From the NCBI GenBank assembly GCA_039809905.1, contig JBDHVY010000001.1, positions 390,001 through 422,000 on the forward strand: a stretch of DNA of 32,000 nt, given 5' to 3'. Under the pieces are notes generated by a model. It saw only the letters and a program-made list of their open reading frames with translations. It had not been told where the DNA came from and did not search any database. How positions within the stretch are numbered: position 1 is the stretch's first letter; each line of letters starts with the position of its first letter. This DNA is from Candidatus Babelota bacterium (GTDB lineage: Bacteria > Babelota > Babeliae > Babelales > Vermiphilaceae). Shown here piece after piece: positions 9,916 to 12,911 of this stretch. The position numbers were made by a program, and so were the translations under genes.

Positions 9916-12911
9916 TAAAACGATTAACAGCACCATTATCATTCATACTATTTATAATTACGTGTGCCATATGTGGATGGTATTTGTATGCTTCTTATTC
10001 TATTATTCCTTTCTATAAAAAACATCTTTCCACTATTGCCAATAATCGTCTTCAAGAAATAAATACTTTTCTTGATGAACAAGAAAAATATGCTATTCAA
10101 TTATCACAAGAACAAATAGTTATTGATGCATTACATAACAGTCGTGCAGATAACGTTGCTGCATTAATTATTTCCCATAAAGAAACCATGGAATTTAGAA
10201 ATATATTCCTGATCGATAAAGATAAGAAAATAATTTTTTCTACCACAAAAAAAGACCTCGTTGGAACAGTTTTGACAGAAGAACCATCTTCACTAGCAAA
10301 ATCATATGAGCGAGCTACAATGACACTCACCAATGATTTTTCTAACTTTAATTTTAATGAATTGCTCCAAGAACCAGCGCTTTTTATTACCATCCCCATT
10401 CTTAAAGATAAAAAATATATTGGTACACTCTCGTATCAACTTGAGGCGGAAAAAATATATCTCATAACAAATCAATACATAGGCTTGGGAAAAACAGGCG
10501 AAGTAGCTCTCGGAAAAAAAGAAGGCGAATATGCCATTTTCCTTTTCCCAACTCGTAATGATCCTGATATAGCATTTAAAAAAAGAGCGTTATTTACCTA
10601 TCCTCCGCTTTCAATTCAAGCAAGTATTCTCGGCCAAGAAGGCTCTGGGACCGCGGTAGATTATCGTGGAAAAAAAGTAGTAGGATCTTGGAAATTCATT
10701 CCACGGCTTGATTGGGGAATGATCGTTAAAATTGATATCAATGAAATAATTCAATCGATATATCTGCCTTATACGTTGTTTTTATTATTTCTTGTTTTGT
10801 TTGTACTGAGCATGACAATAAATGCATATATATTCCGCCATCGCATACATTATATATTAATTAGGCTGAATGCATCACTCAAAAGCATACCATCATTAGC
10901 TAAAAATCCACTTTTTATTATAAGCATCATTTTTTTTGGATTCACGATAAAAAATATTATTCAGTGTTCACGACAAAAATCATTTGCGATCGAAAAAACA
11001 CAAAAACAAGCGCAAGAAAACAATGAAAAAAACAGCGAAAACATTACCAAAATATTAGAAAAAATTGCTTTTATCGGACAATCGATCGCTAAAGATTTGG
11101 AAACAAATTATCTCAAAAAAGATGATATTACCACTCGAATTGAGCGCGATTTAGCTGAAAACAATATTATCACCGATATAACCATAGCACTTATCTCCGA
11201 TGATCAAAAAATAACACAAGTACAAACTACTTCATCTGATACTGTTGTTGAAAAGGCCATTACTCAAACACATTGGTATACACAAGCTCTTAAAAAAAAC
11301 AGTAGTTGGATTGTCAATACGCCTTCTGAAACCCAAACAGCTACCTATGCTTGCATTGCTACCAACACAAATAAAAAAGCAAGTGCTGTTATTGCTATTA
11401 CCTTTTCATTGAAAACTATTGTTTCTACCACAGAATTACATAATATTGGACAAACAGGATACTCAATTATTACCGCAGAAGATGGTACTTTTATATACCA
11501 CCCTATTTCAACATTAGTTACCAATGAAATGACCTTATTACAATTTGCTCAATCACAAGGAAATGAAGTACTGGCAAGTATCGCGGAAAAATCATTAGAT
11601 GGAAAACCTTTATTATCTTCATACACATCATCCAGTTCAAATGGAATCCATTGGGTTGCAACTCAACCTATTCCAACCAATAATTGGATTATTGGAACAA
11701 TATTTTCTGAAAATGAAGTCGGTCTTTCTCCACAAAAAATTCGCCATTATTATTTTTGGATATTATTGTGGTTCATTCTCACGGCAATAAGCTTTATATC
11801 ATTATTATTCTATACTCATCGTATTATTTCAGAAATATTTTACACTGCTATGATAAACATACTATTGTTATTGGGCATTATAGCTGCATGGTATGCCATC
11901 ACTATTACACACACCATAAGCAATGATTCAATTGTTATTATCACTGACCAATCAAGTCTTGATAAATTTTTAAATGATCTTAATGAAGAAGCAGATCGCA
12001 AACATGAACCAAAACCAATTACTGTTCCCTGTGGATTATTGCTTTATTCAATTAATATTCCTGATCCTGATCATATGGAAATATCCGGCTACCTTTGGAG
12101 TAAATATAACACACTTGAAAATAAAGATATTACTCGAGGAATAGATATCTTACAATCAACGCGCATGGCAATTGGTAAACCTATCACTTCAAACACTGGC
12201 AGTTGGGAAACAGAAACATGGACCGTTCAAGGAGTATTGTCACAAGATCCTCACAATGTTCATTATCCTTTTGATCAGCCACAATTACGCATTATTTTTG
12301 AGCATCGCGATATCGAAAAAAATATTATTCTTACTCCAGATCTTGCGGGATACAAAAAAATAAGTCCTGAAACAATGCCAGGACTTGATAAAGACTTTGC
12401 CATTTCAGGCTTTAATGTGGAAGAAACATTTTTTGAATACAAGTTTTTTGATCCCAAAGCAAATTTTGGATTCAAAGAATACGGTAAAGTAACTGATCAC
12501 TTCCAGCTGATTTATAATGTCATATTAAGTCGTAATTTACTTAATCCTTTTGTAATCTATATATTACCATTGCTGGTGATTCTCTTTACTCTCTTTTGCA
12601 CACTACTTATTTCAGGCAGAAAGACGGATCCATTTTCTATGCTCGGAACGTATACAGGTCTTTTCTTTTCATTAATCATTTTGCAACGATCATTACGAGA
12701 ACAATTACCATCAGGCTCAACACTGTATATTGAATATGCTTTTTTTTATACCTATATCACGATTATCTTATTGGTACTACACACCATTTTAAATCATTTT
12801 TCTCAACATAAAATAAGATATCAAGAAAAAGCTTTTCATATGCTTAAATTATTATTTTGGCCATTTCAACTGGTTTCATGGCTTATTACGACAATATTAG
12901 TCTTCTATTAG
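9912..12911 (+). CDS. Multi-pass membrane protein: two Cache-like extracytoplasmic sensor domains fused to a C-terminal pentameric ligand-gated ion channel (Pro-loop pLGIC)
   Basis: ATGA overlap with the PBP gene. Hydrophobic segments lie at about aa 9-29, 284-308, 332-352, 613-634 and 642-666, plus M1-M4. Cache-like endings: DYRGKKVVGSWKFIPRLDWGMIVKID and NGIHWVATQPIPTNNWIIGTIFSE. pLGIC part (aa ~672-999): ITVPCGLLLYSINI..., loop motif HYPFDQPQLRIIF (nt 12261-12299), M1 RNLLNPFVIYILPLLVILFTLF, M2 SMLGTYTGLFFSLIILQRSL, LP...YIEYAFFYTYITIILLVL (M3), a short M3-M4 loop, and M4 at the C-terminus. Confidence 0.75.
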   Translation: MIKRLTAPLSFILFIITCAICGWYLYASYSIIPFYKKHLSTIANNRLQEINTFLDEQEKYAIQLSQEQIVIDALHNSRADNVAALIISHKETMEFRNIFLIDKDKKIIFSTTKKDLVGTVLTEEPSSLAKSYERATMTLTNDFSNFNFNELLQEPALFITIPILKDKKYIGTLSYQLEAEKIYLITNQYIGLGKTGEVALGKKEGEYAIFLFPTRNDPDIAFKKRALFTYPPLSIQASILGQEGSGTAVDYRGKKVVGSWKFIPRLDWGMIVKIDINEIIQSIYLPYTLFLLFLVLFVLSMTINAYIFRHRIHYILIRLNASLKSIPSLAKNPLFIISIIFFGFTIKNIIQCSRQKSFAIEKTQKQAQENNEKNSENITKILEKIAFIGQSIAKDLETNYLKKDDITTRIERDLAENNIITDITIALISDDQKITQVQTTSSDTVVEKAITQTHWYTQALKKNSSWIVNTPSETQTATYACIATNTNKKASAVIAITFSLKTIVSTTELHNIGQTGYSIITAEDGTFIYHPISTLVTNEMTLLQFAQSQGNEVLASIAEKSLDGKPLLSSYTSSSSNGIHWVATQPIPTNNWIIGTIFSENEVGLSPQKIRHYYFWILLWFILTAISFISLLFYTHRIISEIFYTAMINILLLLGIIAAWYAITITHTISNDSIVIITDQSSLDKFLNDLNEEADRKHEPKPITVPCGLLLYSINIPDPDHMEISGYLWSKYNTLENKDITRGIDILQSTRMAIGKPITSNTGSWETETWTVQGVLSQDPHNVHYPFDQPQLRIIFEHRDIEKNIILTPDLAGYKKISPETMPGLDKDFAISGFNVEETFFEYKFFDPKANFGFKEYGKVTDHFQLIYNVILSRNLLNPFVIYILPLLVILFTLFCTLLISGRKTDPFSMLGTYTGLFFSLIILQRSLREQLPSGSTLYIEYAFFYTYITIILLVLHTILNHFSQHKIRYQEKAFHMLKLLFWPFQLVSWLITTILVFY

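Follow-up and report, generated by a model that had tools for sequence, protein, structure and literature searches.

The question raised by this locus is whether a bacterial pLGIC could be wired to chemical sensors within a single polypeptide. The window, that is, the whole stretch of DNA analyzed (32,000 nt), came from Candidatus Babelota bacterium (assembly GCA_039809905.1, contig JBDHVY010000001.1, positions 390,001-422,000, forward strand). It contains a 999-aa ORF (9912..12911, + strand, as are all features below) with the domain order TM1 - dCache-A - TM2 - TM3 - dCache-B - TM4 - TM5 - pLGIC ECD - M1-M4. Hence, the pLGIC module is placed behind two membrane-anchored periplasmic dCache units (TM1-dCacheA-TM2 and TM3-dCacheB-TM4) and a TM4-TM5 hairpin. 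An earlier note had proposed a complete Cys-less pLGIC module closing a 9-TM fusion, and this was supported by profile-to-PDB searches, structure prediction, and Foldseek. Every sequence element quoted in that note was found in the ORF.

The pLGIC module was undetected by scans with either Pfam, including the Neur_chan models, or NCBIfam. Judged by family profiles and a structure model, the C-terminal module (aa ~669-999) is nevertheless truly, if very distantly, related to the nicotinic/GABA receptor channel family. In agreement with the earlier proposal, GLIC was found by profile search: family profiles matched it at E=9e-6, and with a second profile it ranked first among sequence-profile matches (E=1.4e-7, covering GLIC residues 79-303). 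The AlphaFold model of the module (pLDDT 84.3, pTM 0.76) began with a helix, continued into a beta-sandwich of ten strands whose YPFD loop is Cys-less, and ended with M1-M4. Searched with Foldseek, it returned 1,022 matches at E<=0.001, where all 50 of those listed were pLGICs (structural match E~1e-13), and an earlier, shallower model led to the same answer. The fold was shared with GLIC over its whole chain (TM-score 0.64-0.70, rmsd ~4.7 A, ~328 columns) at an identity of ~16%. Additionally, all seven superfamily-conserved residues, listed together with the Pro-loop motif definition in Table 1 of PMC4795631, were present in the window protein and conserved across its family, and the pLGIC motifs were kept in 148 relatives.

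The ECD is joined at its top to TM5 by a linker and an N-terminal alpha-1 helix (11907..11999; aa 666-696, helix modeled at aa 680-696), which formed the best conserved extramembrane segment among the Dependentiae orthologues (0.66). The beta-sandwich, from beta-1 to beta-10 (12018..12533; aa 703-874), was delimited by model strands, Foldseek, and profile alignment, with the strand start ITVPCGLLLYSINIPDPDHMEISGYLWSKY at aa 703-732. In the profile search, the region aligned with GLIC residues 79-192 and the beta-1 motif P-x-x-P-T/C-G with GLIC PLTVNTG. The signature loop HYPFDQPQLRIIFEHRD was confirmed, with YPFD at 12264..12275 (aa 785-788) and no flanking cysteines; among the 148 sequences, the conservation of this Pro-loop was 100% for the proline, 91% for D, and 100% for Y/F. 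The preceding segment, from beta-2 to the Pro-loop, is indeed shorter than in GLIC, as had been suspected, by 21 aa (77 residues for G708-Y785 versus 98 for G21-Y119 of GLIC). However, the segment from the Pro-loop to M1 is 16 residues longer (89 versus 73), and therefore the ECD overall is not reduced. The reduced agonist pocket that had been suggested was not supported as stated: the ECD matches that of GLIC in size, and across the family its conservation is comparatively high around loops B, F, and C. Such conservation fits a ligand or ion site within the ECD just as well as gating through the Cache domains or the binding protein.

The pre-M1 stretch ILSRNLL, M1 NPFVIYILPLLVILFTLF, and M2 SMLGTYTGLFFSLIILQRSL were all present in the ORF. 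M1 (12540..12614; aa 877-901, model limits) carries the kink proline P886 and follows the pre-M1 R874; these align to GLIC P204 and R192, and were conserved in 96% and 91% of the 148 sequences, respectively. For the M2 pore helix (12630..12704; aa 907-931, limits from the model), our best guess is a register of 2' G912, 6' G916, 9' F919, 13' I923, 16' R926, 19' R929, and 20' E930, for which we relied on the limits of the helix and on P933. The register differs in the HMMER alignments, which leaves the assignment of gate and selectivity residues uncertain; the caution that M2 does not disclose ion selectivity holds, as three alignment registers disagree. F919 and R929 were each conserved in 93% of the 148 sequences. 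Compared with prokaryotic pLGICs, M2 differs by a mid-helix Phe-Phe and, in the preferred register, by the lack of a basic 0' residue. The M1-M2 linker was the least conserved segment besides the M3-M4 turn. M3 (12723..12800; aa 938-963, modeled) follows the M2-M3 loop LPSGST, which contains P933, and opens, as previously read, with LPSGSTLYIEY; Y939, E941, and Y948 were conserved in 94%, 93%, and 99% of the 148 sequences. The M3-M4 loop, already recognized as very short, has four residues in the model, and is followed by the C-terminal M4 (12813..12905; aa 968-998, modeled) with a conserved W983-P984. Among orthologues, conservation along the protein was highest in M1-M3 (0.74-0.81). The likeness to GLIC, ELIC, and sTeLIC lies in the Cys-less Pro-loop Y-P-F-D, the pre-M1 Arg, the M1 kink Pro, and the very short M3-M4 turn. 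Relative to GLIC, the window protein adds three elements before the ECD: a TM hairpin, the alpha-1 helix, and membrane-anchored sensors that span ~670 aa.

Hydrophobicity analysis of this N-terminal extension agreed with the 1+2+2 arrangement of hydrophobic segments described earlier. TM1 (9924..9992; aa ~5-27, Kyte-Doolittle peak 2.03) would run outward from the cytoplasm, with an N-terminal tail of net charge +2.3 across nine orthologues. The periplasmic double Cache domain dCache-A (10002..10751; aa ~31-280) was matched by Pfam dCache_1 (E=9.7e-24, aa 37-272), and its orthologue alignment (A5) had 31 invariant positions. By hydropathy, the first TM hairpin (10764..10967) comprises TM2 (aa ~285-307), a cytoplasmic loop (aa 308-331, ~24 aa, net charge +3.9), and TM3 (aa ~332-352). 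The second double Cache domain, dCache-B (10971..11744; aa ~354-611), was assigned from weak Pfam matches (dCache_2, sCache_2) and from a profile (A6) that matched dCache domains of chemoreceptors with known structure (7w0w, E=6e-13; PctA, 4e-6). The Cache-like character proposed for both N-terminal domains was thereby supported, and the two are highly diverged from each other (hhalign E=4.4e-5, 11% identity). The dCache_1AA amino-acid motif is absent from both: dCache-A lacks the W-Y core and the motif Arg, and dCache-B has a Thr at the equivalent of PctA R126 and therefore lacks the motif as well. The second TM hairpin (11748..11906) comprises TM4 (aa ~613-634), a cytoplasmic turn of ~10 aa, and TM5 (aa 641-665; hydrophobic segment at aa ~645-667), which was modeled as a helix (pLDDT 85-90) with W660 conserved in 83% of the 148 sequences. 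Coupling elements such as TM5 and the linker/alpha-1 segment thus appear to be under selection.

Given that each Cache domain is bracketed by the membrane and followed in turn by the hairpin and M1-M4, nine TM helices are expected per subunit. The shared extracytoplasmic location of the ECD and both Cache domains agreed with segment parity and net-positive cytoplasmic loops across nine orthologues, in a topology based on hydropathy and domain precedent. With a TM2-TM3 loop of ~24 aa and a TM4-TM5 turn of ~10 aa, the Cache domains have no cytoplasmic output.

Intact orthologous ORFs, 988-1049 aa in length, were found in eight Dependentiae/TM6/Babeliales genomes, and an exhaustive profile search collected 2,247 relatives, 1,109 of them at E<=1e-30. 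Most family members are ~700 aa long with one dCache, and some are ~1050 aa long with two. The tandem double-Cache form had been called unusual, a view that needs tempering within this family, where it accounted for about 24 of the 149 best representatives listed. Exactly two hydrophobic segments were located within 95 aa before the ECD in 119 of 127 family representatives (~94%), and a TM hairpin just ahead of the ECD is what characterizes the family at large. Standard annotation overlooks a large set of such proteins. About 14 members lack Cache domains and keep the TM hairpin, an observation that neither favors nor excludes an agonist site in the ECD itself.

The gene directly upstream (8671..9915, 414 aa) encodes a type I periplasmic binding protein of the UrtA/AmiC kind, whose N-terminus carries a hydrophobic anchor or signal. 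It was matched by Pfam Peripla_BP_5 (E=7.5e-132), by TIGR03407 UrtA at 398.8 bits (under the cut-off of 492.75), and by PDB entries 8tg1 (E=6e-99), UrtA structures (about 1e-80), and AmiC (9e-50). The compound that it binds is probably of the size of urea, an amide, or guanidine. The stop codon of this gene overlaps the start codon of the channel gene in an ATGA sequence, read directly, and the two genes are predicted to be translationally coupled. Genomes of the Dependentiae (TM6/Babeliales) have retained this pair: the binding-protein gene was directly upstream in all ten full-length related locus records, which represent the eight intact orthologue genomes and one frameshifted genome counted twice (L002/L004). 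It was absent from the neighborhoods of all four more distant family members examined, and therefore is not a general part of the mechanism. A terminator-like hairpin after the upstream RRM gene (8569..8617; 18-bp stem and T run) is the predicted 5' boundary of the two-gene unit, and Rfam returned only sub-threshold matches there, corresponding to the hairpin itself. A promoter-like site TTTACT-17-TAAAAT (8636..8664) lies just upstream of the binding-protein gene as a consensus match only; such sites were no more frequent in the region than in shuffled sequence, and therefore the promoter evidence is weak.

Taken as a whole, the locus probably encodes a Cache-sensor-wired pLGIC that turns chemical sensing into ion flux, where we infer that gating is exerted by the Caches or by the binding protein. 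Outside the cell, the dCache domains, the binding protein docked on them, or both would recognize a small molecule. Ligand binding would displace the helix leaving the membrane-proximal module, as in other Cache receptors; this helix, TM4, has no cytoplasmic output domain and would turn straight back as TM5. From model confidence values, TM5 is predicted at the periphery of the channel helix bundle, and it would run on into the conserved linker and the alpha-1 helix on the ECD. Motion of the hairpin and linker could then bias the ECD-TMD interface such that the pore opens or closes, and chemical sensing would be converted directly into ion flux.

A conventional pLGIC, whose own ECD binds an agonist or ion while the Caches and the binding protein serve only as modulators or local concentrators, is a possible, more tentative reading. 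Strong conservation among relatives of only 24-35% identity, around loops B, F, and C and at the aromatic residues W729, W770, Y814, and F841, suggests one common ECD site, and the ECD is of normal size. A modulator or concentrator role was already proposed by Tasneem et al. (2005; PMC549065), and the DeCLIC NTD merely accelerates gating (PMC12664993). However, an invariant family-wide pocket combined with highly variable Caches fits sensing by the Caches better. It seems unlikely that the UrtA-like protein instead passes urea, amide, or guanidine to a solute-conducting pentamer. The binding protein closely resembles UrtA, which binds the substrate for urea importers of the ABC type, urtBCDE was not found among ORFs of at least 100 aa in the window, and genomes of the host lineage are small (1.2-1.5 Mb). 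Yet pLGICs form ion pores equipped with a hydrophobic gate, none is known to take up solutes, and the pairing with the binding protein is limited to one clade of the family.

Extreme divergence, with the low identity to GLIC and no Pfam match, as well as the missing basic residue at M2 0' and an Arg at 16' in the preferred register, would speak for a non-conducting pLGIC-derived fold that serves the Cache sensors as a pentameric scaffold or transducer in the membrane. This also seems quite improbable, given that M1-M3 have the top conservation among orthologues and that the gating-interface residues (Pro-loop Asp, pre-M1 Arg, M1 Pro, and M2-M3 Pro) are kept. Additionally, the conserved mid-M2 Phe is compatible with a 9' gate, because F occupies this position in 13% of pLGICs (PMC4795631). 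It is hardly credible that the long ORF arose as an artifact of assembly or annotation, through the joining of separate Cache-sensor and channel genes. In L002/L004, the region is split into called genes of 61, 231, and 543 aa, but these splits are frameshifts within homology that extends unbroken along the full 999 aa, and the binding-protein gene there is frameshifted too. The artifact was rejected, as the ORF is uninterrupted in eight other genomes and an identical gene is present in an independent assembly (Logan SRR27308757).

Type I periplasmic binding proteins are partnered with membrane sensors bearing a double PAS/Cache-like periplasmic domain in pairs of the LuxP-LuxQ type, and the amide sensor AmiC illustrates that this binding-protein family can be used for sensing and not just transport. 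Their output is a kinase or an antiterminator, whereas that of the window protein would be an ion channel in the same polypeptide. Fusions of Cache and pLGIC were already predicted, as MCP-N + Cache + LGIC in Methanosarcina, Cytophaga, and Microbulbifer, along with Cache and PBP partners of prokaryotic pLGICs, where several ligand-binding domains were thought to cooperate (Tasneem, Iyer, Jakobsson and Aravind, 2005; PMC549065). The window protein shares a double-Cache-type sensor N-terminal to the pLGIC core and an operon association with periplasmic binding proteins. As described, however, the 2005 architecture consists of a signal peptide, extra domains, LBD, and 4 TM without intervening membrane helices, whereas the window sensors are all TM-bracketed and, compared by description, include two Cache units in series; the operon partner is PBP-I (UrtA-like) rather than PBP-II. 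Wiring through a membrane hairpin, Caches in tandem, and an operon with the binding protein had previously not been described. The architecture, considered unusual in the earlier note, is so among characterized pLGICs, but it is common in metagenomes and its single-Cache ancestor was predicted in 2005.

DeCLIC, the Desulfofustis pLGIC, also has a large periplasmic N-terminal extension, which makes up about half of the subunit mass and modulates gating (PMC12664993), but its NTD consists of two soluble, calcium-binding jelly-roll lobes, compared with dCache domains and five extra TM helices in the window protein. Tandem dCache_1 domains associated with an ion channel are likewise found in the animal CaV alpha2delta, where they regulate a cation channel (PMC8915833), and PBP folds serve as channel ligand sensors in ionotropic glutamate receptors (PMC549065). 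These channel families are unrelated (voltage-gated, tetrameric), and alpha2delta is a separate subunit, whereas the Caches of the window protein are fused to the channel.

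All strings that an earlier note had read, from the sequence alone, as parts of a pLGIC were found in the ORF 9912-12911 (+), which encodes the 999-aa channel protein. These included the beta-1/beta-2 start (aa 703-732), HYPFDQPQLRIIFEHRD, in which YPFD spans nt 12264-12275 without flanking cysteines, the pre-M1 segment ILSRNLL, M1, M2, LPSGSTLYIEY at the start of M3, and the terminal M4. The Pfam models Neur_chan_LBD and Neur_chan_memb gave no match to the full protein, nor to the module at aa 640-999 even at E<=10, where only spurious RseC_MucC and Spo7 matches were returned. 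Likewise, an NCBIfam search of the protein gave no match to the module, and a phmmer search with the module as a single sequence against PDB sequences returned chance matches only. The missing Neur_chan match is a limit of the Pfam models and not a structural failing of the module. A profile of the first 13 homologues matched GLIC from the Pro-loop through M4 (E=9e-6), and a broader 22-sequence profile matched GLIC residues 79-303 (E=1.4e-7), with a sub-threshold but telling match at beta-1, where P-I-Y-V-P-T-G-I of the family was aligned to P-L-T-V-N-T-G-I of GLIC.

The AlphaFold models pointed to the same superfamily. A first model, built from 14 sequences, had a pLDDT of 74 and matched only pLGICs in Foldseek (E~1e-11). 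The second model of the module, built from 22 diverse sequences, had a pLDDT of 84.3 and a pTM of 0.76, and yielded 1022 Foldseek matches at E<=0.001 (best E 3.6e-13). The best 50 of these were all pLGICs (50/50), among them GLIC, sTeLIC, and GABA-A, glycine, and nicotinic receptors. Compared with GLIC by Foldseek, the second model had a TM-score of 0.64-0.70 normalised to GLIC and an rmsd of ~4.7 A over ~328 columns (311-residue chain). The predicted fold was that of a whole subunit, with an extracellular beta-sandwich followed by the four-helix bundle M1-M4. Hence, structure prediction and profile alignment to GLIC both returned pLGICs, as the earlier note had anticipated, and the module is almost certainly a pLGIC homologue.

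The seven most conserved residues of the superfamily, listed in Table 1 of Jaiteh et al. (PMC4795631), were all present in the module, where the assignment of the M2-M3 Pro depended on the alignment used. The [F/Y]-P-x-D motif is located at the beta6-beta7 loop tip (GLIC 119-122), and no residue of the superfamily other than its Pro is absolutely conserved (PMC4795631). In the window protein, Y785-P786-F787-D788 (nt 12264-12275) aligned with the YPFD of GLIC; among 148 family sequences, the first position was Y or F in 100%, the Pro was retained in 100%, and the Asp in 91%. The core aromatic of beta-9, which is W160 in GLIC and F or Y in 16% and 11% of the superfamily (PMC4795631), was represented by F834, and the family consensus G-W-x-x-x-x-S-F-F carries a W at this position. 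R874, within ILSRNLL, aligned with GLIC R192, the salt-bridge partner of the Pro-loop Asp (PMC4795631). It is the pre-M1 Arg of the module (R in 91% of the 148 sequences), and the corresponding pairing with the Pro-loop Asp is predicted from the alignment. The M1 kink Pro was found as P886 in YILPLL, aligned with GLIC P204 and conserved in 96% of the same sequences. For the M2-M3 loop Pro, which is P247 in GLIC and conserved in 88% of the superfamily (PMC4795631), the candidate was P933, located two residues past the modelled end of M2 (Q931) with the same spacing as in GLIC. However, HMMER alignments placed GLIC P247 four residues earlier, and P933 was conserved in the Dependentiae clade only and not in the wider family. 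The Cys pair of metazoan receptors was missing, as TWTVQGVLSQDPHNVHYPFDQPQLRIIFEHRD contains no Cys, which identifies the window protein as a Pro-loop receptor of the Cys-less prokaryote type. Taken with these residues, the profile and structure matches make membership of the pLGIC superfamily well supported.

The first half of the extracellular domain (ECD) was indeed shorter than in GLIC, as suggested earlier, with 77 residues from G708 to Y785 compared with 98 from G21 to Y119 in GLIC. The second half was longer (89 vs 73 residues), which offsets the shorter first half and results in an ECD of normal size. The proposal that the agonist pocket is reduced was not borne out: besides the normal size, several ECD regions matched the membrane helices in their conservation across the family. 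These included H-x-D-x-x-x-N in the loop B region, L-x-P-D-x-x-x-Y ... P-x-x-x-P-G in beta-8 and loop F (P809 conserved in 100% of the family), and N-F-G in a part of loop C (G853 conserved in 97%). Since the loop B, F, and C regions are conserved in this way, the pocket region is not degenerate.

The M2 register given by the model helix limits (aa 907-931) and P933 would place F919 (93% Phe) at 9' and M910, which is not basic, at 0'. The other positions in this register would be G912 at 2', G916 at 6', I923 at 13', R926 at 16', R929 (93% Arg) at 19', and E930 at 20', which reproduces what we take to be the R19'...L22'-P23' pattern of glycine receptors. Two HMMER alignments gave competing registers, with T915 or G916 at 9'. 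In the superfamily, the hydrophobic 9' gate is L in 75% and F in 13%, and a basic residue occupies 0' in 79% (PMC4795631). Apart from the M3-M4 turn, the M1-M2 linker was the least conserved segment in the family.

Upstream of the module, a Kyte-Doolittle scan identified five hydrophobic segments at aa ~5-27, 285-307, 332-352, 613-634, and 645-667, in agreement with the 1+2+2 arrangement reported before, and it also detected M1, M3, and M4, while the amphipathic M2 fell below the threshold. Both domains enclosed by these segments belong to the Cache superfamily. In dCache-A, aa 37-272 matched Pfam dCache_1 (E=9.7e-24). For dCache-B (aa ~354-611), the Pfam matches to dCache_2 and sCache_2 were weak, and a profile of its orthologues matched solved dCache chemoreceptor domains (7w0w, E=6e-13; PctA, 4e-6). 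As a single sequence, dCache-A had no match in the PDB, and its profile gave only weak matches to WalK PAS domains (E~3e-3). The two domains aligned with each other in hhalign (E=4.4e-5) at 11% identity, so they are distantly related and not the product of a recent duplication, as judged from the sequences.

In all precedents, Cache domains lie outside the cytoplasm. In the window protein, dCache-A, dCache-B, and the ECD were separated by even numbers of hydrophobic segments, and the predicted cytoplasmic segments had a net positive charge in each case among nine orthologues: +2.3 in the N-terminal tail, +3.9 in the TM2-TM3 loop, +0.4 in the TM4-TM5 turn, +0.8 in the M1-M2 loop, and +1.4 in the M3-M4 loop. 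These three lines of evidence support the placement of both Cache domains and the ECD on the same side of the membrane, which had been proposed from the sequence by eye. Hydropathy, parity, and charge likewise predict the topology of a pLGIC, with the ECD and the C-terminus outside and the M1-M2 and M3-M4 loops inside. The dCache_1AA amino-acid motif comprises Y121, R126, W128, Y144, and D173 in PctA numbering (PMC8915833), and it was absent from both Cache domains in the alignments. The W-Y core was retained in dCache-B, where the R126 position is a Thr in most orthologues (K-T-x-W-Y), and it was missing from dCache-A, which has S-Y-E-R-A and no Trp at the corresponding place.

Directly upstream of the channel gene, at 8671-9915 (+), lies a gene for a type I periplasmic binding protein of 414 aa (Pfam Peripla_BP_5, E=7.5e-132); the stop codon of this gene overlaps the start of the channel gene as ATGA. 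The closest solved relatives of the binding protein were 8tg1 (E=6e-99), the UrtA structures (~1e-80), and AmiC (9e-50). An identification as UrtA proper was rejected: the score of 398.8 bits against TIGR03407 (UrtA) is under the NCBIfam equivalog cut-off of 492.75, and a scan of window ORFs revealed no ABC transporter genes (urtBCDE). The protein falls within the wider Peripla_BP_5 family. At 8569-8617 (+), a very strong hairpin of terminator-like form, with an 18-bp stem, seven G-C pairs, and a T run, sets the gene pair apart from the preceding gene, the second of two tandem genes (7668-8048 and 8226-8552, both +) whose small products are RNA-binding proteins of the RRM_1 type with tails rich in Gly and Arg. 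The Rfam search for a riboswitch upstream of the operon returned nothing at the gathering score, and the sub-threshold matches to Yfr11, McaS, and mir-128 at 8569-8617 were accounted for by the terminator hairpin.

A scan with one genome per species identified ten related loci, all from metagenome-assembled genomes, and those with a lineage in the title were assigned to candidate division TM6 or Candidatus Babeliales. Eight of the ten contained an intact single ORF of 988-1049 aa that shared 33-55% identity over the full length, and in every one of these (8/8) the channel ORF was directly preceded by the binding-protein gene. The same arrangement was observed at L002 (3498-7629), one of two loci from the 1.2-Mb genome OY969561 (the other being L004), with frameshifts in both genes: the binding-protein gene lies in two reading frames and the 999-aa homologue in three, while homology is continuous. 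The frameshifts reflect either indel errors in long reads or an operon that is decaying as a whole. The RRM gene pair is likewise located upstream of the binding-protein gene in this genome. A gene-fusion artefact was ruled out by the eight intact orthologous ORFs together with an independent assembly that contains the identical gene; on the same grounds, the fusion is real and under selection. Among the orthologues, conservation was highest in M1-M3 (0.74-0.81), followed by the TM5-ECD linker with the alpha-1 helix (0.66) and the ECD (0.60), with values of 0.58 for dCache-A and 0.50 for dCache-B.

The family extends far beyond these orthologues. With the single sequence, a word-indexed homologue search recovered no more than 13 relatives, and with a profile 19, most of them fragments. 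When 1.84 billion cluster representatives (clusters at 50% identity) were searched exhaustively with a profile, 2247 relatives were found at E<=0.001, 1109 of them at E<=1e-30, which overturned the reading of a rare family that the 13 hits had given. Hence, the k-mer prefilter badly under-reports the size of this membrane family, whose sequences are AT-rich, of low complexity, and fast to evolve. Among the best 149 of the 2247 relatives, ~89 were 650-750 aa long with one dCache, ~24 were 1000-1100 aa long with two, and ~14 were 400-500 aa long without a Cache domain; most were just 24-35% identical to the window module. In 119 of the 127 representatives evaluated (94%), the 95 aa that precede the ECD contained exactly two hydrophobic segments, which marks the predicted TM hairpin as a hallmark of the family. 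The Pfam Neur_chan models matched none of ten sampled members (0/10). The few source-named members are labelled 'hypothetical protein', including a cluster from Candidatus Riflebacteria, except for one spurious 'heme exporter protein D'. Curated models have missed this large family of more than 1000 clusters at 50% identity, in which a membrane hairpin and a Cache domain, the commonest extracellular sensor fold of bacteria, come before the channel.

The binding-protein gene was absent from the neighborhoods of four more distant family members. At the locus of one distant relative (L013), the gene for a 469-aa TM-dCache_2-TM protein (6587-7996; E=4e-44) begins two bases after that of a 614-aa single-dCache member (4741-6585), and together the two could correspond to the double-Cache fusion in split form. 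A derivation of dCache-A from such a stand-alone Cache gene was rejected, as no specific similarity between them was found.

To our knowledge, the pLGICs characterized so far, among them GLIC and the human GABA-A receptors, all have subunits with four membrane helices and sense the agonist within the ECD itself. The idea of a Cache-fused pLGIC is already known: Tasneem et al. (2005) predicted fusions of MCP-N, Cache, and LGIC in Methanosarcina, Cytophaga, and Microbulbifer, as well as operons with binding proteins (PMC549065). As in those proteins, the Cache domains of the window protein are N-terminal to the ligand-binding domain (LBD). The architecture described in 2005 consists of a signal peptide, extra domains, the LBD, and four TMs, with no mention of intervening membrane helices (PMC549065). 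In contrast, and as far as a comparison by description allows, a TM hairpin separates Cache from LBD in the window protein and in 94% of the family representatives. According to papers up to late 2025, the N-terminal domains of prokaryotic pLGICs are little known, and that of DeCLIC, the sole one characterized, consists of jelly-roll lobes (PMC12664993), unlike the dCache domains found here. Literature searches for Cache-pLGIC fusions, pLGIC N-terminal domains, and Dependentiae ion channels returned only the prediction of 2005 and the studies of DeCLIC. Subunits with 7 or 9 TMs, the wiring through a hairpin, and the tandem-Cache form appear to be undescribed, as do the operon with a type I binding protein in Dependentiae and the size of the Pfam-undetected family.

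In chemoreceptors and kinases, the dCache signal runs down the helix that leaves the membrane-proximal module. In the window protein, this helix would be TM4, which has no cytoplasmic output and returns as TM5 after ~10 residues. TM5, which contains a conserved Trp, was modelled at high confidence together with the channel bundle and leads into the extramembrane segment with the highest conservation in the protein. On the simplest reading, a Cache-driven shift of the hairpin and linker would bias the ECD-TMD interface and gate the pore, and extra inputs would come, in the Dependentiae clade, from the UrtA/AmiC-like protein and the TM1-dCacheA-TM2 unit. We infer this mechanism tentatively, and consider it somewhat less probable than even. 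In the main competing explanation, the true agonist binds to the ECD and the accessory domains just modulate the response, for which DeCLIC provides a precedent (PMC12664993) and which is in line with the 2005 proposal (PMC549065). The pocket region of the ECD was near-invariant across the family while the Cache domains were variable, and such invariance would fit either a common ligand or ion of the ECD or a structural and coupling role.

Should the Cache units gate the pore, the family would offer a natural modular system for the control of pLGIC gating by peripheral helices and accessory domains, a direct path from chemoreception to membrane potential in bacteria, and a prokaryotic parallel to the Cache-containing alpha2delta subunits and PBP-gated glutamate receptors. 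A broader possibility, also less probable than even, is that the family forms a pLGIC class of its own, where the ECD has ceded the recognition of ligands to modular two-TM Cache sensors that are wired through the membrane to the pore by a conserved TM hairpin and linker. With 7 or 9 TMs per subunit instead of the canonical four, such a protein would resemble a 'two-component sensor fused to a channel'. In Dependentiae, the sensors would be stacked three-deep, as a soluble UrtA/AmiC-like co-receptor and two Cache units, which could let an obligate intracellular bacterium turn host metabolite levels directly into ion flux. The conserved pairing with the UrtA/AmiC-like protein in the host-dependent Dependentiae provides a concrete ligand hypothesis.

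Several other features were observed in the window. The channel ORF is convergent with a gene at 12886-14295 (-), which overlaps its 3' end by 26 nt and encodes an ankyrin-repeat protein; a paralog is encoded at 14302-15582 (-), and each has an N-terminal hydrophobic segment. A cluster of eukaryote-like WD40 proteins is encoded at 16247-18505 (-), 23738-25426 (-), 25545-26729 (+), and 26738-27934 (+), one of which adds a Skp1_POZ domain. Four ORFs had no Pfam match at E<=0.001: 2256-2849 (+, 197 aa), 6117-7604 (+, 495 aa), 18521-20701 (-, 726 aa), and 30182-30841 (+, 219 aa). The region of the GroEL (Cpn60) gene at 22001-24000 has a G+C content of 39% and a positive GC skew, compared with ~32% and a negative skew around it. 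The WD40 cluster and the ankyrin proteins fit a host-associated Dependentiae/TM6 genome.
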